DNA of 64,000 bases from Rhodospirillales bacterium (lineage in GTDB: Bacteria; Pseudomonadota; Alphaproteobacteria; Rhodospirillales; Magnetospirillaceae), in assembly GCA_019455065.1 (NCBI GenBank), contig JACFNC010000008.1, forward strand, positions 30,277 through 94,276. Reading direction: 5' to 3'. Shown here piece by piece: positions 3,658-29,821 of the stretch. The translations under genes and the position numbers were made by a program. The notes under the pieces were generated by a model, which was given only the letters and a program-made list of their open reading frames with translations, was not told where the DNA came from and searched no databases. Numbering within the stretch: position 1 is the first letter of the stretch; every line of letters starts with the position of its first letter.

Positions 3658-4077
3658 GTGACCGTCCATCTGATCAAGCTCGCCGTCGGGATCGAGGACA
3701 TCGATCATTTGCGCCGTATTCAGGAACGCCGCCTGGCCGACCACGGAATGGTCTTCCATCTGACCCGGATGGTGCCGAAGCGGGCCGACGAACTGGCCGC
3801 CCGCGGATCGATCTACTGGGTGATCCGGGGAGTGGTGCAGTGCCGCCAGGCGGTCCTCGCCGTGCATGAGGAGGCCGACGGCGAGGGCCGGCGTCGCTGC
3901 CGCCTGGAACTCGACCCGCTTCTGGTGCCGGTGCGCCGCGAGCCGTGCAAGGCCTTCCAGGGCTGGCGCTACCTGGCGCCGGAGCAGGCACCGCCTGACG
4001 TCGCGGACGGCAGCGACGATCTCGCCGACATGCCGCCCGACATGTACGCGGCGCTCAAGGAGCTCGGCCTCATCTGA
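3658..4077 (+). CDS. DUF1489-family protein
   Basis: Conserved-looking core VHLIKLAVG ... IYWVIRG ... FQGWRYL. The best start is GTG 3658. The upstream part of ORF 3442.. looks non-coding. Confidence 0.65.
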   Translation: MTVHLIKLAVGIEDIDHLRRIQERRLADHGMVFHLTRMVPKRADELAARGSIYWVIRGVVQCRQAVLAVHEEADGEGRRRCRLELDPLLVPVRREPCKAFQGWRYLAPEQAPPDVADGSDDLADMPPDMYAALKELGLI

Positions 4078-4105
4078 CGGGGGCCCGGGGTCGCGCATCC
4101 TTCGC

Positions 4106-4133
4106 TTGCCCCGCCCCGCCGTTTCCCTATACT
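4106..4133 (+). promoter_or_regulatory. Putative sigma70-type promoter of argG
   Basis: TTGCCC, a 16-nt spacer, then TATACT, ending 26 nt upstream of the argG ATG. Confidence 0.3.
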
Positions 4134-4158
4134 GCGCCGCCAGTTTTCGCGAGCAGCG

Positions 4159-5382
<1,224 letters not shown>

Positions 5383-9041: not shown

Positions 9042-9117
9042 GGGGCCGTAGCTCAGTTGGGAGAGCGCCTCGTTCGCAATGAGGAGGTCAGGGGTTCGAT
9101 TCCCCTCGGCTCCACCA
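9042..9117 (+). tRNA. tRNA-Ala (anticodon CGC)
   Basis: 76-nt cloverleaf folded by hand. Acceptor GGGGCCG/CGGCTCC has the Ala-identity G3:U70 pair. Anticodon loop TTCGCAA, T-loop GGTTCGATTCC, encoded CCA. Confidence 0.93.
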
Positions 9118-20333: not shown

Positions 20334-21317
20334 TCAGGGCAGGGCCGGCCAGGACGGGCGGTGGCGGGCCACGTGCCGAGCCAGTTCGGGGGGCGACAGC
20401 ACCTCGACGGCGTCGCCCCAGGTGTAGAGGTGCCAGGCCATCTCCAGCCAACCCCCCGCGGTGAACCGCACCGTCAGCGAGCCGTCGTCCTCCCATGTCT
20501 TCCGCTGGTCGGGATGGAAGACGAAGCTGGCCGCCTCCTCGGCCGCCTGCGGCAGGAACCGCCACGCGACCTCGACCGGGTTCTCCTGAAACACCCCGAA
20601 GCTGCGGCGCGCGAAGGCGGCGAGGGAGAATTGCGGGTCGCGCACGAAGCCCTCGCCGAGCAACCGCGCCTCGCCGATGCCGGCCAGGCTGAACAGCTTG
20701 TGGAGCCCGTCGTTCGGATCGAGGGCCACCAGATAGTGCCGGTGGCCGTAGAGAAAGCCGTAGGGATGCACCTGCCGGCGCTGCGGCCGTCTGGCGCCCC
20801 GCTTTCGGTATTGGAAGGAGACCTGCCGGCAGGCCTTGATGGCTTCGCGCAACGCTTCGACGACGTCGAGATCGATGGCCGGACGCGGACCGGGCCGGAA
20901 GGCCAGCCCCTCGGCCTCGAGCAGCGCCTCGATGTCGGGCGCCACCCGACGGGCCAGCTCGGGGCGCATCAGCGCCTTGATCTTGGCCGCCACCTCGCCC
21001 AGCCGCGCCGCGGCGTCGGGGCGGTTCTGCTCCTCCATCAGCCGCGCGGCGCCTTCGAGGTCGGCGATCTCGTCGGGCGAGAAGGCGACAAGCCGGTCGA
21101 GCGTGCCGGGCGGGATGTGCCAGCGTTTGATGCGGTCATCGCCCACCCGCTCGACGACCTGGGGGAAGTTGCGAAGCAGCGCGTCGCGCATGCGCATCGC
21201 CGTCCGACGCCCGACGCCGCAGCGCTCCTGGATGTCGGCCAGCGACAGCCCGCCGCGCGCCGCCTGCATGTCGAGCGCCAGTTGCATCAGGTTGTCTGCC
21301 TTTTCATACCGGACCAT
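20334..21317 (-). CDS. WYL-domain transcriptional regulator (HTH - WYL - WCX-like C-terminal domain; YafY/PafBC/BrxR-like)
   Basis: N-terminal HTH (LSLADIQERCGVGRRTAMRMRDAL). Central WYL-type region (VSFQYRKRGARRPQRRQVHPYGFLYGHRHYLVA). C-terminal extension. Divergent from the operon at 21459..23499. Confidence 0.85.
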   Translation of the reverse strand: MVRYEKADNLMQLALDMQAARGGLSLADIQERCGVGRRTAMRMRDALLRNFPQVVERVGDDRIKRWHIPPGTLDRLVAFSPDEIADLEGAARLMEEQNRPDAAARLGEVAAKIKALMRPELARRVAPDIEALLEAEGLAFRPGPRPAIDLDVVEALREAIKACRQVSFQYRKRGARRPQRRQVHPYGFLYGHRHYLVALDPNDGLHKLFSLAGIGEARLLGEGFVRDPQFSLAAFARRSFGVFQENPVEVAWRFLPQAAEEAASFVFHPDQRKTWEDDGSLTVRFTAGGWLEMAWHLYTWGDAVEVLSPPELARHVARHRPSWPALP

Positions 21318-21404
21318 GCGGCGCCCCCGAATTCCCGCGAAGATTGTCGCATGCGAGGGGTGACGGGAAAAGCCTGGGGCCGCGGAACAAAACGAGACCG
21401 TTTA

Positions 21405-21428
21405 TGTCACATTTGTCAATTGTACTGT
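21405..21428. promoter_or_regulatory. AT-rich repeat block TGTCAC-ATT-TGTCAA-T-TGTACT-GT (candidate WYL-regulator operator or promoter)
   Basis: TGTCA is repeated at a 9-nt offset and followed by TGTAC. It is the only AT-rich segment in the 141-nt divergent intergenic region. Confidence 0.25.
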
Positions 21429-21458
21429 GGGCGTGCAGGAACAGACCTCGGAAACCAC

Positions 21459-21782
21459 GTGGCCACGCCGCTCTACCGCTTCACCGATGACGCCCTGATC
21501 GAGCTTTCCGACCGGGGCGTGAGGGTGTTCGGGCGTTGGGATCGGCGGTTCGGATGCTGGCGCCTGGAGGGTGGCACGTTCCGCCCGACCGATCCGGGCC
21601 GGGTCCTCGACGCGCGCGGAATCTGGCTGTCGCCCTGGCCCGACTCCGGCGCCGCCGCCGTCGCCGCCTATTTCACCCTGATCCCCCTGCCCGTCCGCCG
21701 CCGCGCCGCACCGCACGGCCCCGACCAGTGGCGGGCGCTGCAGGCGGCGTGGCAAGCGAGCCGGGCCACCCCCTCAATGTGA
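21459..21782 (+). CDS. Hypothetical Trp/Arg-rich protein (107 aa), first gene of the HIRAN/ARH operon
   Basis: Strong GC3 bias in this frame. The start is uncertain; GTG 21459 was chosen. I recognise no family. Confidence 0.45.
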   Translation: MATPLYRFTDDALIELSDRGVRVFGRWDRRFGCWRLEGGTFRPTDPGRVLDARGIWLSPWPDSGAAAVAAYFTLIPLPVRRRAAPHGPDQWRALQAAWQASRATPSM

Positions 21783-21838
21783 CCGAAACCGTCATCCACT
21801 CGGGTTAAACCGGTCCTCAGGATCGAAGGACACCCGAC

Positions 21839-22255
21839 ATGGACACGCAAACACGCTTCATCAGCATCGACCGCAGGCGATTCCTGGCCCTGAGCACCGG
21901 CGGCGCCGCCGCAACCGCACTTCCGGCCGCCCCGGCGCGACCGGCGGCACCGCCGCTGTTCCTGCTGGAAACCCACGTCGCCGGCACGGCGTATTATCAG
22001 GCGGACGAGGTGCGCGAAACCTTGCGTATCGGCCAAGCGCTGATCCTCGGCCGCGAGCCGGCAAATCCACATGACGCCCTCGCCATCGAGGTTTTCACGT
22101 CCGAAGGCGTCAAACTCGGTTATGTGCCGCGCGTCAGAAACCCGCCGTTCGCCCGACTGATGGACGCCGGCCGCACCGTCCTCGCCCGCGTGGCCGCGAC
22201 CGGCCCTCGCGAATGGGACGACATCAGGATGAAACTGCTGCTCGCCGATGACTGA
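21839..22255 (+). CDS. HIRAN-domain protein with N-terminal twin-arginine (Tat)-like signal
   Basis: GAAGGA SD 8 nt upstream. Signal-like DRRRFLALSTGGAAATALPAAPA. HIRAN-like core VAGTAYY ... LGREPANPHDALAIEV ... KLGYVPR. Confidence 0.78.
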   Translation: MDTQTRFISIDRRRFLALSTGGAAATALPAAPARPAAPPLFLLETHVAGTAYYQADEVRETLRIGQALILGREPANPHDALAIEVFTSEGVKLGYVPRVRNPPFARLMDAGRTVLARVAATGPREWDDIRMKLLLADD

Positions 22256-22442
22256 GGACGTAACCACCGCCCCTTGCCCGCACTGCCGGGCCCAGGCCGA
22301 GCATTCCGTGCATCGCTGCGGCACCGAGGTTTTGCTCTGGTGCCGGCGATGCCGCCGCGTGAGAATGAAAGAAAACGAGACCGCTCATGACACAGCCGAC
22401 GATTACGACACCCCCGACACCAGGCTGCCCGGACGATTTTGA
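22248..22442 (+). CDS. Small four-Cys zinc-ribbon protein (64 aa) with an acidic tail
   Basis: The ATG overlaps the HIRAN gene end by 8 nt. CPHC-x18-WCRRCRRV. About 14 of 31 core residues are identical to ORF 1056..1244 by hand alignment. Confidence 0.5.
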   Translation: MTEDVTTAPCPHCRAQAEHSVHRCGTEVLLWCRRCRRVRMKENETAHDTADDYDTPDTRLPGRF

Positions 22443-23499
22443 GGAACTCCTCGCCGCCATCCCATCCCTCGGCGACGATGCCTTCGCCGAGCGCGCCCTT
22501 GGCTGCCTGTTGGGCGGCGCCTTGGGCGATGCCTTCGGCTATCTGGTCGAGTTCGACGAGCTGCCGCGGATTCGCGCGCGCTTCGGGCCGGACGGGCTGA
22601 CCGAATTTCCCGACGGCCGGCTGATCGTCTCCGACGATACCCAGATGACGCTGTTCACGCTGGAAGGTCTGCTGGAGGCGGGATTGGCGGCGCCCGTCGC
22701 GGCCAAGGTCCAGGCCATCCGCCGCGCCTATCTGGATTGGTACGCCACCCAGCGCGGCAGCCGACCGGACCGCGACCAAGGCTTGCGGCGCTATCCCGAG
22801 CTGTGGGCCACGCGGGCGCCCGGCAACACCTGCCTGGGGGCGCTTCGGGCCGGCGGCCGGGGCACGGTCACCCAGCCGGTCAACGACAGCAAGGGCTGCG
22901 GCGGCGTCATGCGGGCGGCCCCTATCGGGCTTGTCCGCGCCGACGACCCCGAGACCTGCTTCCGCATCGCCGTCGACGCGGCGGCGCTCACGCATGGCCA
23001 CCCCTCGGGCTACCTGCCGGCCGGGGCGATGGCGGCGATGGTTCGGCTGATGATCGACGGCATGCCGCTGGCCGAGGCGGCGAATCGGACCCTGGCGATG
23101 CTCCGCGGATGGCCGGGCCACGGAGAAACGTCGGCCGCCATCTCAGGGGCCCTGAAACGCGCCGCCGCACCCCGTCCGGACAGGGACATCGCCGCGCTGG
23201 GCGAGGGCTGGGTCGGCGAGGAGGCGTTGGCCGTCGGCCTTTACAGCGCGCTTGTCGGCGGGGACCTCATGCGCACCCTGGTGTTGGCCGCCAACCACGA
23301 CGGTGATTCGGATTCGACCGCCTCGATCGCCGGCCAGCTTTACGGGGCCGCCCGCGGCCTGTCCGACATTCCCGAGCGGTGGTGTGGGCGCCTCGACGTC
23401 GCCGCGCCCCTGGCGTGGCTGTCGCGACGGCTGCTGGCGGCGCAGGCGGGCGTGATCACTCGGGCGCCGACGCCCGCCACTCCGGCCAGCCATTCTTGA
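22387..23499 (+). CDS. ADP-ribosylglycohydrolase (ARH/DraG superfamily) protein
   Basis: GCLLGGALGDAFGY, SDDTQMTLF and NHDGDSDSTASIAGQLYGA metal-binding motifs. The only in-frame ATG start overlaps the zinc-ribbon ORF by 56 nt. Confidence 0.88.
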   Translation: MTQPTITTPPTPGCPDDFEELLAAIPSLGDDAFAERALGCLLGGALGDAFGYLVEFDELPRIRARFGPDGLTEFPDGRLIVSDDTQMTLFTLEGLLEAGLAAPVAAKVQAIRRAYLDWYATQRGSRPDRDQGLRRYPELWATRAPGNTCLGALRAGGRGTVTQPVNDSKGCGGVMRAAPIGLVRADDPETCFRIAVDAAALTHGHPSGYLPAGAMAAMVRLMIDGMPLAEAANRTLAMLRGWPGHGETSAAISGALKRAAAPRPDRDIAALGEGWVGEEALAVGLYSALVGGDLMRTLVLAANHDGDSDSTASIAGQLYGAARGLSDIPERWCGRLDVAAPLAWLSRRLLAAQAGVITRAPTPATPASHS

Positions 23500-24103
23500 G
23501 ACGGCGCGCCCGGAAGCCGGCGCCGCGCAGCGTGGTGACGGCGTCGAAGGCCAGCACGCAGTAGGGTCCCCGGCAATAGGCGACGATCTCCTTGTCCCGC
23601 GGCAACTCCGCCAGCCGCCGCGACAGTTCGCCGGCCGGAATGTTGACGGCGCCGGGTATGTGGCCGGCCTCGTACTCCGCGGTCGGGCGCACGTCGATGA
23701 CCACCGCCTCGCCGCGCCGCACGAGGCGCAGCAGGTCGGCGCGGCGCACCGCCTCGAGGCCGTCGCGGCTGCTGAAATGCTCGCGCGCCACGCGCTCGAC
23801 CTCGGCGATCTGGCGTTCGGCCACCCGGCGGATGCTGGCGACCAGCCGCACCACCTCGTCGTCGGCCAGCCGGTAGATGATCTGCACGCCCTCGCGCCGC
23901 GAGGCAACGATGCCGCCCTCGCGCAGCACCTGTAGATGATGCGAGGCGTTGGCGATGGGAATGCCGACGGCGCGGCCCAGTTCCTCGACGCTGCGCTCGC
24001 CCTGCCCCAGCGCCTCGACCAGTTCGAGGCGGATGCCGTTCGCCAGCGCCTTGGCGACGCGGGCAAACAGGTCGGACATCTCGCGCTTGGGACCGTTGTT
24101 CAT
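23456..24103 (-). CDS. ArsR-family HTH fused to a rhodanese domain
   Basis: HTH LELVEAL ... ASHHLQVLREGGIV, then a rhodanese domain with active-site loop YCRGPYC. Its 3' end overlaps the ARH gene 3' end by 44 nt (convergent). Confidence 0.85.
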   Translation of the reverse strand: MNNGPKREMSDLFARVAKALANGIRLELVEALGQGERSVEELGRAVGIPIANASHHLQVLREGGIVASRREGVQIIYRLADDEVVRLVASIRRVAERQIAEVERVAREHFSSRDGLEAVRRADLLRLVRRGEAVVIDVRPTAEYEAGHIPGAVNIPAGELSRRLAELPRDKEIVAYCRGPYCVLAFDAVTTLRGAGFRARRLKNGWPEWRASAPE

Positions 24104-27739: not shown

Positions 27740-29692
27740 ATGGCTCCTCCCGCCTGCCGGCCGATCCCTTGTCAAAGCGCCGCCGAGCGCCTTCATGCCA
27801 TTCATGAACGCCCGGAGGACCGCACCCTGACCGTCGCCGTCATCGGGCATGTCGATCACGGAAAGACCGCGCTCGTACGGGCCCTCACCGGCATCGAAAC
27901 CGACCGTCTCAAGGAGGAGCGCGAGCGCGGCATCTCGATCGTGCTGGGCTTCGCGCCACTGGTTCTCGATGCCGGAACCATCGACCTGATCGACGTGCCC
28001 GGGCATGAGAATTTCGTGCGCACGATGATCGCCGGCGCCGGCGGGGTGGACGCCGTGCTGCTGGTCGTGGCCGCCAACGAGGGGGTGAAGCCGCAGACCG
28101 TCGAGCACCTTGCCATCGCGCGCCTGCTTGGCGTACGGCGCGGCCTTGCGGTGATCAGCAAGGTGGATCTGGCCGACGGGCGGCCGGCGATGGAAGAGGC
28201 GGTGGCGCTGATGGCCCGGAACCGCATCGTCGGCCCCGCGATCGGCGCCTCGGCGCTGACCGGCGAGGGTGTCGCCGAGATACGCGGCGCGTTGGCGGTC
28301 CTGACAAAGGGCGCTCCGAGCCCCGCCGACTGCGGCTTCTGCCACCTGCCCGTCGACCGCGTGTTCTCGTTGCCCGGCCACGGTACGGTCGTCACCGGCA
28401 CGCTGCGGCGCGGCCCGATCGCCGTCGGCGACACCGTCGCGGTCGTTCCCGGCGGTCTCGCTGCCCGCGTGCGCGGCCTGGAACTGCATGGCCGGCCCGT
28501 CGCGAGCGCGCCTCCGGGGCGCCGGGTCGCGGTCAACCTGCGTGGTGTCGCCCGCGAGGCGGTGCCACGTGGCAGTACCCTGGCCACCCCGGGAAGCCTG
28601 CGGCCCGCGACGTGGCTGGACGTCGCGGTAACGGCCCTGGACGCCGCCCTGATCGACGGCGCCGAGCTGGTGCTGCTGACCGGCACCCAGGAGACGCCGG
28701 CACTGCTTCGGGTGCTCGGGAAGCGGGAGGTGCCGCCGGGAACGGAGGCGGTGGCGCAATTGCGCTGCCGCCGGTCGGTCTGCGCGGCAGCGGGGGATGC
28801 GTTCATCCTGCGGCGGGCATCGCCGCCGGCCACGCTGGGTGGCGGACGAATCCTCGATCCGGCCTCGCGGCGAAGGCGGCGCGACCACGCCCTCGCCGCC
28901 TATCTTTCCGGACTGGTCGGGGCGACGCCGGAGCAGGTGGTCGCGGCGAGGCTGGCATCGGGCCCGGCGCCGGTGGCCGAACTCGCGCGCCTTGCCGGCG
29001 TCGCCGCCGACCGTCTGGATCGATCCCTGCGCGCCGCCCGCGCGATCAAATTCGCCGACGGCACCATCGTGGCGGCGGCGGGGCTGGAGCCGCTGCTCCG
29101 GCGGGTACTTGCCACGCTCTCCGGAGCCGCGCGCAAGCCGGACACCATGCGCGGGCTGTCCCCGCCGGCGCTGCGGGCAGCACTGCCCGACATCCCCGGG
29201 GCGGTGGTCGACGGGCTGCTGGGCATTCTGCTGCGCAAGGGACTTGCCGAGCGCAACGGCCCTCTGGTTCGGCGGCCCGGGGCCGGCGGGGTAACGCTGT
29301 CGCAGCGCGAGCACGGCTTGGCCGAGCGCCTGGAGGCGGCCTGTCGGACCGGGGGCTTGACACCGCCCGCGGTCGCGACCTCGGGCGACCGGGCGATGGC
29401 GGCGGCCGTCGCCTATCTGGTGGGCAGCGGCCGGCTGGTCTGCGCGGTCGACCGCGTGCACAAGCGGCGCATCCTGTTCCACCGCGACGTCGTCGCCGAG
29501 GCGCGCCGGCGGCTGGCGCGGGCGTTGGAAACGATGCCCGAGGGCATCACGGTTTCGGAGGCCGGTAGCCTGCTCGGGATTTCGCGCAAGTTCTCGATCC
29601 CCTTGCTCGAGCATCTCGACGCGACGGGCGTCACCCGCCGGGTCGGGGACCGCCGCGTATTGGCCGAGCGGCGCTCTACCCAGATCGCCTGA
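27740..29692 (+). CDS. selB: Selenocysteine-specific translation elongation factor
   Basis: G-domain motifs GHVDHGKT, DVPGHENF and SKVDL, plus a long C-terminal winged-helix region. tRNA-Sec follows 36 nt downstream. The start (ATG 27740) is uncertain. Confidence 0.9.
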   Translation: MAPPACRPIPCQSAAERLHAIHERPEDRTLTVAVIGHVDHGKTALVRALTGIETDRLKEERERGISIVLGFAPLVLDAGTIDLIDVPGHENFVRTMIAGAGGVDAVLLVVAANEGVKPQTVEHLAIARLLGVRRGLAVISKVDLADGRPAMEEAVALMARNRIVGPAIGASALTGEGVAEIRGALAVLTKGAPSPADCGFCHLPVDRVFSLPGHGTVVTGTLRRGPIAVGDTVAVVPGGLAARVRGLELHGRPVASAPPGRRVAVNLRGVAREAVPRGSTLATPGSLRPATWLDVAVTALDAALIDGAELVLLTGTQETPALLRVLGKREVPPGTEAVAQLRCRRSVCAAAGDAFILRRASPPATLGGGRILDPASRRRRRDHALAAYLSGLVGATPEQVVAARLASGPAPVAELARLAGVAADRLDRSLRAARAIKFADGTIVAAAGLEPLLRRVLATLSGAARKPDTMRGLSPPALRAALPDIPGAVVDGLLGILLRKGLAERNGPLVRRPGAGGVTLSQREHGLAERLEAACRTGGLTPPAVATSGDRAMAAAVAYLVGSGRLVCAVDRVHKRRILFHRDVVAEARRRLARALETMPEGITVSEAGSLLGISRKFSIPLLEHLDATGVTRRVGDRRVLAERRSTQIA

Positions 29693-29728: not shown

Positions 29729-29821
29729 GGAGGCGATAGGGGTCTGGTGGCCCTCCTGGTCTTCAAAACCAGCGGTCCGTTCGCAGCGGATGGTGGGTTC
29801 GATTCCCATCCGCCTCCGCCA
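29729..29821 (+). tRNA. selC: tRNA-Sec (anticodon UCA)
   Basis: 93 nt. Anticodon arm CTGGT-CTTCAAA-ACCAG, long variable arm, T-loop GGTTCGATTCC, discriminator G plus CCA. Confidence 0.9.

Follow-up and report, generated by a model that had tools for sequence, protein, structure and literature searches.

In a 64,000-nt stretch of DNA (the window; GC ~70%) from a 143.9-kb contig of a Rhodospirillales metagenome-assembled genome (JACFNC010000008.1), we found a five-gene locus that is probably an operon of the DriD type, induced by single-stranded DNA (ssDNA), to which a hydrolase of the ADP-ribosylglycohydrolase (ARG/ARH) clade has been added; we put the probability of this reading at roughly 65%. 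A gene for a WYL-domain regulator is divergent from four co-directional genes, which encode a 107-aa protein from an open reading frame (ORF) referred to here as ORF107, a small HIRAN-domain protein, a 64-aa Cys-rich ORF and the hydrolase, ARH (Table 1; the window's proteins are MBW7850942-50). Regulators of the DriD type give bacteria a way to sense ssDNA that is independent of SOS and was defined only recently. The switch is of a known kind; the ORF107 family and a HIRAN protein with a putative export leader are the real unknowns of the locus. The five ORFs stand at exactly the coordinates at which an earlier note, made from the letters of this DNA, had placed them, and the spacings that it gave between the co-directional genes (a gap of 56 nt, then overlaps of 8 and 56 nt) are also exact. 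Its assignments of a WYL regulator divergent from four genes (minus strand; Pfam WYL 8.8e-12, WCX 8.2e-11), of a HIRAN domain, of an ARH-family ADP-ribosylglycohydrolase and of a Trp/Arg-rich 107-aa protein without recognised motif were all corroborated, the last as a real gene with no Pfam match. The Tat signal that it had seen on the HIRAN protein is present as a leader pattern conserved in the family, with a TAT_signal match below the Pfam cut-off.

Table 1. Genes and putative DriD-type boxes of the locus, in window positions.
Feature	Position	Strand	Description
WYL regulator	20334..21317	minus	327 aa, MBW7850946; DriD-like wHTH-3HB-WYL-WCX, putative transcription activator
Putative DriD box 1	21392..21411	plus	ACGAGACCGTTTATGTCACA; AGAC-N7-GTCA; WYL-ORF107 intergenic region
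ORF107	21459..21782	plus	107 aa, GTG start; small Trp/Arg-rich family strictly linked to DriD-like regulators
Putative DriD box 3	21777..21796 (16-mer match 21778-21793)	plus	ATGTGACCGAAACCGTCATC; TGAC-N7-GTCA; over ORF107 stop codon
HIRAN protein	21839..22255	plus	138 aa, MBW7850948
Putative twin-arginine (Tat-type) leader of HIRAN protein	21839..21937	plus	residues 1-33, ..SIDRRRFLALSTGGAAATALPAAPA
64-aa Cys-rich ORF	22248..22442	plus	CPHC..x17..CRRC; possible small fast-evolving gene
Putative DriD box 2	22375..22394	plus	ACGAGACCGCTCATGACACA; AGAC-N7-GACA; over ARH ATG
ARH (ADP-ribosylglycohydrolase, ARG/ARH clade)	22387..23499	plus	370 aa, MBW7850949

By its alignments, the window regulator is a homologue of DriD, the ssDNA-activated activator of Caulobacter. 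Its best matches in a phmmer search of the PDB were the Caulobacter DriD structures 8tp8, 9pfq, 7tzv and 7u02 (E 7e-60, residues 2-312), with PafC a distant sixth and no BrxR or CapW structure at E<=0.01, and the similarity to DriD (40% identity) extends over the full-length wHTH-3HB-WYL-WCX architecture. The recognition helix reads GVGRRTAMRMRDA in the window protein and GVGRRTAERMRDA in DriD. When aligned to the DNA contacts of DriD (PMC10853764), the window protein retains the base-reading Arg37 and Arg41 as well as the phosphate contacts Arg36, Thr38, Arg43 and Lys62, and carries Met in place of Glu40, the residue that in DriD reads C1 of the operator (PMC10853764). We also compared the set of DriD residues that contact ssDNA (Y168, S172, R176, R178, R189, Y192, R204, W206, R207, Y240 and R288) and found four of the 11 identical (Y168, R176, R178, Y192) and three conservatively changed (R204K, W206F, Y240F); mutation of Y168 or of R176/R178 abolishes activation by DriD (PMC10853764). 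By analogy, we propose that the window protein would bind ssDNA arising from DNA damage or from the entry or replication of foreign DNA, and that its wHTH domains would thereby be freed.

DriD recognises the sequence XC1G2X3C4-N7-G12X13C14G15X with an AT-rich centre (PMC10853764), and we found three boxes of this type in the locus, with the pattern xGAC-N7-GxCA. Box 1 lies in the 141-nt region between the WYL gene and ORF107, that is, in the regulator's own intergenic region, where it has G2, C4, G12, C14 and the AT-rich centre, and its core AGAC-CGTTTAT-GTCA is identical at 14 of 16 positions to the Caulobacter driD/CCNA_03891 box, GACCGTTTCTGTCGCA. The spacing is also alike, with the right half-site ending 50 nt before the ORF107 GTG and, for the Caulobacter equivalent, 53 nt. 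Box 1 is preceded by a conserved GAACAAAA tract and is kept in seven related loci (L083, L087, L088, L089, L090, L172 and L173; L-numbers are labels of the related loci compared with the window), and box and tract together form the main conserved block in the aligned intergenic regions of these relatives. Between the window and L081, which lies on a contig 96.4% identical, the 141 nt hold no substitution, and the 5146 nt compared hold 179 overall. We predict box 1 to be an activator site overlapping the ORF107 promoter at its -35 position.

Box 3 was found with the Caulobacter 16-mer at three mismatches, and 45 nt separate the end of its right half-site from the HIRAN ATG. L083, L088 and L173 carry equivalents at the ORF107 3' end, 45-50 nt away from the start of HIRAN, and the DNA motif ATGTGACCG is kept as coding sequence in two lineages and across the stop codon in others. 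In L172 the box is retained despite a deletion of HIRAN. Box 3 is a predicted internal DriD-dependent promoter for HIRAN, so that ORF107 and HIRAN appear each to have a DriD-type promoter of their own. The freed regulator would bind the xGAC-N7-GxCA boxes at the -35 position, 45-50 nt before the ORF107 and HIRAN starts, and would recruit RNA polymerase from there, as Caulobacter DriD does at the promoter of CCNA_03891/CCNA_01149. All three window boxes have A/T at positions 1/15, and this loss of C1/G15 fits the change of Glu40 to Met in the regulator. Box 2, over the ARH start codon, is identical to box 1 at 20 of 23 positions, including the 12-mer AAAACGAGACCG and the A-rich upstream tract, and keeps G2, C4, G12 and C14 of the DriD consensus; the pattern common to boxes 1 and 2 has two matches in the 64 kb, with none expected, and the nearest relative, L172, has no box 2. 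The GACAC variant of the right half seen in box 2 was also observed in box 3 of L088 and at position 5964 of L090.

Two further observations concern the regulator's surroundings. At 21385-21399, overlapping the left half of box 1, stands a GAAC-N7-GACC sequence, which is kept in L083, L087, L088, L089, L172 and L173 and resembles the alphaproteobacterial LexA box GAAC-N7-GAAC at 7 of 8 positions; the window holds 8 occurrences of the pattern against 3.9 expected, so that it is not rare, and the sequence could equally be a LexA-type box or an A-tract for the C-terminal domain of the RNA polymerase alpha subunit (UP-like). In L083 a further DriD-type box, GACCGCGTTTGTCGC (3846-3860), lies beyond the WYL gene and 47 nt upstream of an 89-aa ORF (3908-4177) without Pfam match, and an ORF of the same size is found in the same place in L087 (4585-4854). 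The 89-aa ORF of L083 may be another small DriD target.

ORF107, to judge by its coding properties and relatives, is a real gene of a rare family. It contains 6 Trp and 15 Arg (pI 10.95), its GC content at third codon positions (GC3) is 0.88, and against the 96%-identical contig of L081 it shows three synonymous and two non-synonymous changes. A profile search of 5.8 billion proteins recovered homologues in 17 clusters, with the invariant motifs GRWDRxFGxW, LxxxGxWLxP, YFxLIP, RR and QW. None of 18 family members matches Pfam, even at E<=10, and ORF107 has no NCBIfam or PADLOC match, no tblastn match in 72,556 plasmids or 50,697 phages, and none in IMG/VR. Its AlphaFold2 (AF2) model (pLDDT 87, pTM 0.78) is a five-strand meander followed by two helices, with no Foldseek neighbour at E<=0.001 in the PDB or BFVD. 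We considered whether ORF107 could be ARPP, described by Iyer and colleagues in 2022, which fits the context (ARG/phosphatase, HIRAN, WYL), and rejected it, as Pfam ARPP-1 (PF20208) matches 0/18 members and as the published fold, a duplicated four-strand meander with an inserted barrel, is unlike the five strands and two helices of the model; the PF20208 model itself works, having matched one ARG neighbour at 2e-98.

The comparison of ORF107-family loci covered nine distinct lineages, eight of which have upstream sequence in which linkage to a WYL gene could be counted. In the window lineage, which includes L081, the order is WYL, ORF107, Tat-HIRAN, 64-aa ORF and ARH, between housekeeping flanks. 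WYL, ORF107 and Tat-HIRAN stand together in L083 (WYL 63% and ORF107 45% identical; beside type III CRISPR-Cas, NERD/UvrD and PDDEXK genes), in L088 (followed by a Crp-family regulator and cytochrome c genes) and in L173 (WYL 76% identical), where an SbcD/Mre11-like metallophosphoesterase gene (1618-2031) follows 173 nt downstream of the ORF107-HIRAN pair. L090 has WYL, a 475-aa fusion and a free ORF107 paralogue, with no defence genes among its neighbours; L174 has WYL, a short HIRAN and an ORF107-like gene beside Wadjet JetC/JetD; L089 has WYL and an ORF107-like gene only, among reverse transcriptase (RT), GmrSD, type I restriction-modification (RM; S subunit) and PIN genes; and in L087 the contig ends after WYL and ORF107. 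The 1620-nt contig of L172 holds box 1, ORF107 (74% identical), box 3, the HIRAN deletion, a 60-aa ORF homologous to the 64-aa ORF, and a DSP-PTPase-ARG fusion. This deletion is clean (~370 nt; the last HIRAN codons and box 3 remain), and the ARG part of the fusion is 77% identical to the window ARH, with its N-terminal DSP-PTPase domain still attached.

Wherever upstream sequence is available in these lineages (8/8 loci), ORF107 is accompanied by a divergent DriD-like WYL/WCX gene; 7/9 lineages have HIRAN or had it until recently; and ARH is found with the ORF107 unit only in the window lineage and in L172, so that seven of nine lineages are without it. The conserved set, as these gene neighbourhoods have it, is a DriD-like WYL regulator and ORF107, with or without HIRAN, and ARH is a lineage-specific addition, since only the window lineage and L172 have it. 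We propose that ORF107 would be the ancestral cargo, a new fold tied to this type of regulator, with HIRAN as its usual companion. The 475-aa protein of L090 consists of an ORF107-like N-terminal domain (conditional E 3e-5), a PcfJ-like region and HIRAN, and because one lineage fuses the two in this way, ORF107 and HIRAN probably act together. The gene divergent from the regulator is the only universally linked DriD target and is uncharacterised even in Caulobacter. The ORF107 family (the window and eight relatives), locked to DriD-like regulators and with its own operator at a fixed distance, is a candidate core effector or feedback component.

The neighbourhoods of L083, L089 and L174, with CRISPR-Cas/NERD/UvrD/PDDEXK, RT/GmrSD/RM/PIN and Wadjet JetC/JetD respectively, would be compatible with another explanation, in which the locus is a defence module against phages or mobile elements, its regulator a BrxR/CapW-like WYL repressor released by ssDNA and ORF107 with HIRAN an anti-phage effector pair. 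The HIRAN domain matches the PADLOC candidate PDC-M03B, and CapW also senses ssDNA (PMC11662680). We consider this explanation unlikely, as the PDB search returned DriD and PafC and neither BrxR nor CapW, the operator stands at the -35 position at the DriD distance and not over the core promoter, the window itself is no defence island, searches of phages, plasmids and viral contigs gave no relatives, and neither ORF107 nor ARH matches PADLOC. With BrxR and CapW repressors the window regulator shares the wHTH-WYL-WCX architecture, CapW also being a sensor of ssDNA, and several related loci stand in defence islands; the differences are that the regulator's similarity is to DriD and that the operator geometry is of the activator type.

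The HIRAN protein matches Pfam PF08797 well above its cut-off (1.3e-16; 60.6 bits vs 24.7), and its AF2 model has pLDDT >90 over residues 40-138, with low confidence for residues 1-30. Foldseek placed the model with Lactobacillus plantarum lp_0118 (3k2y; TM 0.91, 1.5 Å) and with the HLTF HIRAN-DNA complexes (probability 1.0). The motifs HVAGTAYY and REPANPHDALAIEV align with VVGLRYY and RDPNNPYDKNAIKV of HLTF, and the YY, N and D positions of HLTF reportedly hold the 3'-OH end of ssDNA. Compared with HLTF/Rad5 HIRAN and bacterial lp_0118 (4s0n, 5bnh, 3k2y), the window domain has the same fold and conserves the YY, N and D positions; it differs in being a stand-alone domain of 100 aa after a putative twin-arginine leader, without a helicase or ubiquitin-ligase partner and under DriD-type control. 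The leader consists of DRRRFLA, 18 uncharged residues and APA, and its Pfam TAT_signal match (E 9e-4) scores 19.5 bits, below the cut-off of 22.7. The same arrangement, RR with an uncharged stretch and AxA, is found in all small HIRANs linked to ORF107, and RR with at least 12 uncharged residues is found in 52 of the 120 best HIRAN-family clusters. On this evidence the most likely place of action of HIRAN is extracytoplasmic, in the periplasm or at the envelope, and the protein would retain there the fold that binds 3' DNA ends. To our knowledge, the one role described for the HIRAN domain is to bind 3' DNA ends at replication forks, and a large clade with twin-arginine leaders is unexpected for such a domain.

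We sampled 80 genome loci of the small-HIRAN family and found ARH within 7 kb in one, WYL in two, and ORF107 and the zinc-ribbon ORF in none. The family divides into two types, one leaderless and with a J-domain partner, the other twin-arginine-led and without it; in 67/80 genome loci a coiled-coil J-domain (HPD) protein of ~275 aa comes before the leaderless protein (~131 aa), and twin-arginine-led HIRANs outside the ORF107 lineages have no conserved partner in 10 genome loci. The J-domain module with leaderless HIRAN was observed in Proteobacteria, Verrucomicrobiota, Acidobacteriota, Firmicutes, Spirochaetes and others (e.g. L013, 1147-1974 and 1974-2372), and PDC-M03B matches only its HIRAN half. 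In two of these leaderless loci a WYL gene stands upstream of the J-domain partner or is fused to it in frame (L014 4681-6864; L002 4063-4548), so that WYL and HIRAN are associated again beyond the ORF107 lineages; in L014 there is in addition a DriD-like box (4656-4670).

A bolder version of the mechanism can be formulated. The DriD-like factor would sense ssDNA in the cytoplasm and so set off the export of HIRAN, already folded and able to bind DNA 3' ends, through the Tat pathway; ORF107 would be a hitch-hiking partner or a chaperone that binds the leader; and the outcome would be a periplasmic or envelope arm of a response to DNA damage or foreign DNA, by which DNA ends are captured or blocked at the time of uptake, conjugation or lysis. 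We consider this version very unlikely; if it were true, the twin-arginine-led HIRAN clade, with at least 52 protein clusters, would be an unrecognised class of extracytoplasmic DNA-end binders.

ARH is a clear member of its family (Pfam ADP_ribosyl_GH, PF03747: 1.8e-67, 228.5 bits), with the metal motifs SDDTQM and NHDGDSDS invariant in the alignment. The family is very large, 7,982 of 8,000 scored candidates reaching E<=1e-30, and the closest solved structures are ARH1 (2e-15) and DraG (6e-15), followed by Tri1 and ARH3; ARH is below the NCBIfam equivalog cut-offs of DRAG (78.5 vs 337 bits) and Tri1 (52.7 vs 490 bits). Its nearest relatives (55-60% identity) are mostly DSP-PTPase + ARG fusions of ~520 aa, with which it aligns in two blocks, one made up of its first ~13 residues and the other starting at residue ~14. 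ARH looks like a derivative of such a phosphatase-ARG fusion from which the phosphatase domain was lost, and a tblastn search of the window with the P0139 phosphatase domain gave no match. The 131-nt spacer between HIRAN and ARH holds no terminator, no hairpin with a U-tract and no significant structure (z = -0.79). We hypothesise that ARH, derived from a phosphatase-ARG fusion and added in this lineage, would be read through from the HIRAN promoter, since no terminator lies in the spacer, and that removal of ADP-ribose, probably from Arg-type protein adducts, would in this way become ssDNA-inducible in this organism. That ARH is nearer to the Arg-specific ARH1 and DraG than to enzymes known to act on nucleic-acid ends is a weak argument against a role of ARH at DNA ends.

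The neighbourhoods of the ARH clade were sampled at 80 metagenome loci, among which HIRAN, ORF107 and the zinc-ribbon ORF were found in none and WYL in two. The neighbours are heterogeneous (81 Pfam families in 120 neighbours), and neither all-against-all clustering nor a Pfam census of the 120 neighbours gave a recurrent partner. A clade without a conserved neighbourhood is what one would expect if the locus were two adjacent unrelated units, a DriD-like/ORF107/HIRAN damage response and an independent ARH gene, constitutive or under some other control, with or without the Cys-rich ORF. The 131-nt spacer, with an A-rich translation-initiation region before ARH, and the flanks, made up of ordinary housekeeping genes (TRAP transporter, MarR, ArsR-rhodanese, methyltransferase), point the same way. 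We nevertheless doubt that the two are independent, because in L172 ARH still follows directly downstream of the DriD-box promoter after the loss of HIRAN, and because the window genes are co-directional and tightly packed, with no terminator between HIRAN and ARH and a DriD-type box at the ARH start.

The same two lineages in which ARH stays with the DriD box and the ORF107 unit bear on a further alternative, in which the locus is an ARG-centric system of counter-ADP-ribosylation, the WYL protein being a repressor whose ligands are nucleotides or derived from ADP-ribose, HIRAN reading ADP-ribosylated DNA ends and ARH erasing marks that a foreign ADP-ribosyltransferase has written. Systems of this kind, centred on ARG and without an ADP-ribosyltransferase (ART), were predicted by Iyer, Burroughs, Anand, de Souza and Aravind in 2022 (Viruses 14:1977, section 3.8; PMC9503650), with phosphatase fusions, WYL/Nudix regulators, chaperones and pairing of ARPP with HIRAN and WYL (PMC9503650), and the phosphatase-ARG clade was predicted to reverse foreign ADP-ribosylation (PMC9503650). 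The nearest relatives of ARH have the DSP-PTPase-ARG architecture of that work, a WYL gene lies divergently ~1.1 kb upstream of ARH as the adjacent WYL factor of these systems would, WYL or Nudix regulators occur in 42% of them and ARPP pairs with HIRAN and WYL (PMC9503650). A DriD-type box also overlaps the ARH start, and we found no ART among the Pfam-annotated neighbours in L081 or L083, the whole 64-kb window not having been scanned gene by gene. We regard this alternative as quite improbable. ARH is absent from 7/9 ORF107/DriD-like lineages, and HIRAN and ORF107 are absent from 80/80 ARH-clade metagenome loci; ORF107 is not ARPP-1 (0/18 members at E<=10); the regulator is similar to DriD, an activator with ssDNA as its ligand, and has operators of DriD-type geometry; the export leader is on HIRAN and not on ARH; and the phosphatase partner is deleted in the window. 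The twin-arginine leader in particular argues against HIRAN acting on chromosomal DNA ends beside a cytoplasmic ARH.

These comparisons decide what remains of the inducible module that the earlier note had proposed. The WYL-controlled unit stands, with a DriD homologue and boxes before ORF107 and HIRAN, and a conserved HIRAN-ARH eraser module does not: the combination of HIRAN, zinc ribbon and ARH is otherwise missing from the 80 HIRAN and 80 ARH loci, and what is kept across neighbourhoods is WYL with ORF107, with or without HIRAN, in place of the combination of HIRAN, zinc ribbon, ARH and WYL. The note knew of no described system of this composition, and in this it was partly wrong, because ARG systems linked to WYL and HIRAN had been predicted (PMC9503650) and DriD with its divergent operon had been characterised experimentally (PMC13004042).

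The closest known system is the Caulobacter DriD locus (Gozzi 2022, PMC9186387; Schumacher 2023, PMC10853764; Sci Adv 2026, PMC13004042), which the window resembles in the architecture and length of the regulator (327 aa; 40% identity), in the type, near-identical sequence and distance of the operator to the first gene of the divergent operon, and in the order of a small protein of unknown function first and an envelope or putatively exported protein second. The Caulobacter box does not serve autoregulation of driD and activates the divergent operon CCNA_03891/CCNA_01149 (PMC13004042), in which CCNA_03891 is of unknown function, CCNA_01149 is a TonB-dependent transporter, and induction by zeocin is DriD-dependent (PMC13004042). 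The window differs in its cargo, which is HIRAN with a Tat leader and ARH instead of the TonB-dependent transporter, in having A/T and not C/G at box positions 1/15 together with Met for Glu40, in the distance of its box from the regulator start (~75 nt vs 10 nt), and in its additional boxes, which precede the second gene and overlap the ARH start codon, respectively. With the ARG-centric systems the window has in common an ART-less ARG of the phosphatase-fused clade adjoining a WYL factor, with HIRAN nearby, and gain and loss of modules among close relatives (phosphatase lost in the window, HIRAN in L172), a shuffling of the ARG clade between two close lineages in which modules accrete and are lost as predicted for conflict systems. 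It differs from them in lacking phosphatase, ARPP, chaperone, Macro and NADAR components, in having as its WYL factor an activator-type DriD homologue with an ssDNA pocket instead of the presumed repressor that senses ADP-ribose, and in that the ARG is peripheral to its conserved core. DraT-DraG, DarT-DarG and Tre1-Tri1 likewise have an eraser of the ARH fold or an equivalent, and the window ARH is most similar to ARH1 and DraG; unlike in those pairs, no writer is encoded near it among the Pfam-annotated neighbours.

Several points weigh against a DriD-type operon induced by ssDNA. Four of the 11 ssDNA contacts of DriD differ in the window protein (S172R, R189H, R207S, R288L), so the ligand could be a different one. 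Box 1 lies ~75 nt from the WYL start, compared with ~17 nt in 68 alphaproteobacterial DriD homologues (PMC10853764), and no known DriD promoter has a geometry that would accommodate box 2, which overlaps the ARH ATG. None of the functions known for HIRAN domains sits easily with an exported protein, and export is not universal, as the HIRAN fusion of L090 is leaderless. A scan for consensus sigma-70 promoters found none, which is weak evidence, since DriD promoters are characteristically without a -35 element. Three relatives stand in defence islands (type III CRISPR-Cas; GmrSD/RM/RT; Wadjet), and the WYL regulators of defence islands are usually repressors. Lastly, all support for the DriD-type reading comes from sequence and models.

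The 64-aa ORF was skipped by the PGAP annotation, which passes directly from HIRAN (MBW7850948) to ARH (MBW7850949), and none of 15 billion proteins has exactly the sequence of this ORF; a phmmer search of 1.84 billion representatives gave no significant match (three repeat-protein hits), which is uninformative for a query of 64 aa. It had been read as a four-Cys zinc ribbon, and of this the ORF and its coordinates stand, and the zinc-ribbon identity is weakly supported: its YnfU matches are under the cut-offs (NCBIfam 26.4 vs 36 bits; Pfam 22.4 vs 27), the second CxxC is lost in the nearest relative, L172, and by curated cut-off and four conserved Cys it does not qualify as a YnfU/Lar zinc ribbon. 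GC3 is 0.77 in its own frame and 0.62 and 0.60 in the other two, and in the comparison with L172 indels are in-frame only, a pattern compatible with a possible small, fast-evolving gene. A 62-aa paralogue (E 3e-7; PCPxC..EHxV..WCxxCRRV) lies at 1056-1244 on the plus strand, flanked by an EAL-domain gene and a hybrid histidine kinase, and is called as a protein in Logan assemblies.

The surroundings of the locus are ordinary, with a TRAP transporter and a MarR gene upstream and, downstream, a convergent ArsR-rhodanese regulator, a SAM methyltransferase, cytochrome oxidase and SelB. The ArsR-rhodanese gene, a fusion of an ArsR/SmtB HTH domain with rhodanese (23456-24103, minus strand), is convergent with ARH and shares 44 nt with the 3' end of the latter; the position of the fusion gene is the same in L081 and not in the other related loci, and it is probably unrelated to the operon. 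Rfam matches across the window are two tRNAs and nothing else, an ordinary tRNA at 9042-9114 and a tRNA-Sec gene at 29729-29817, directly after the SelB-containing ORF, which ends at 29692.

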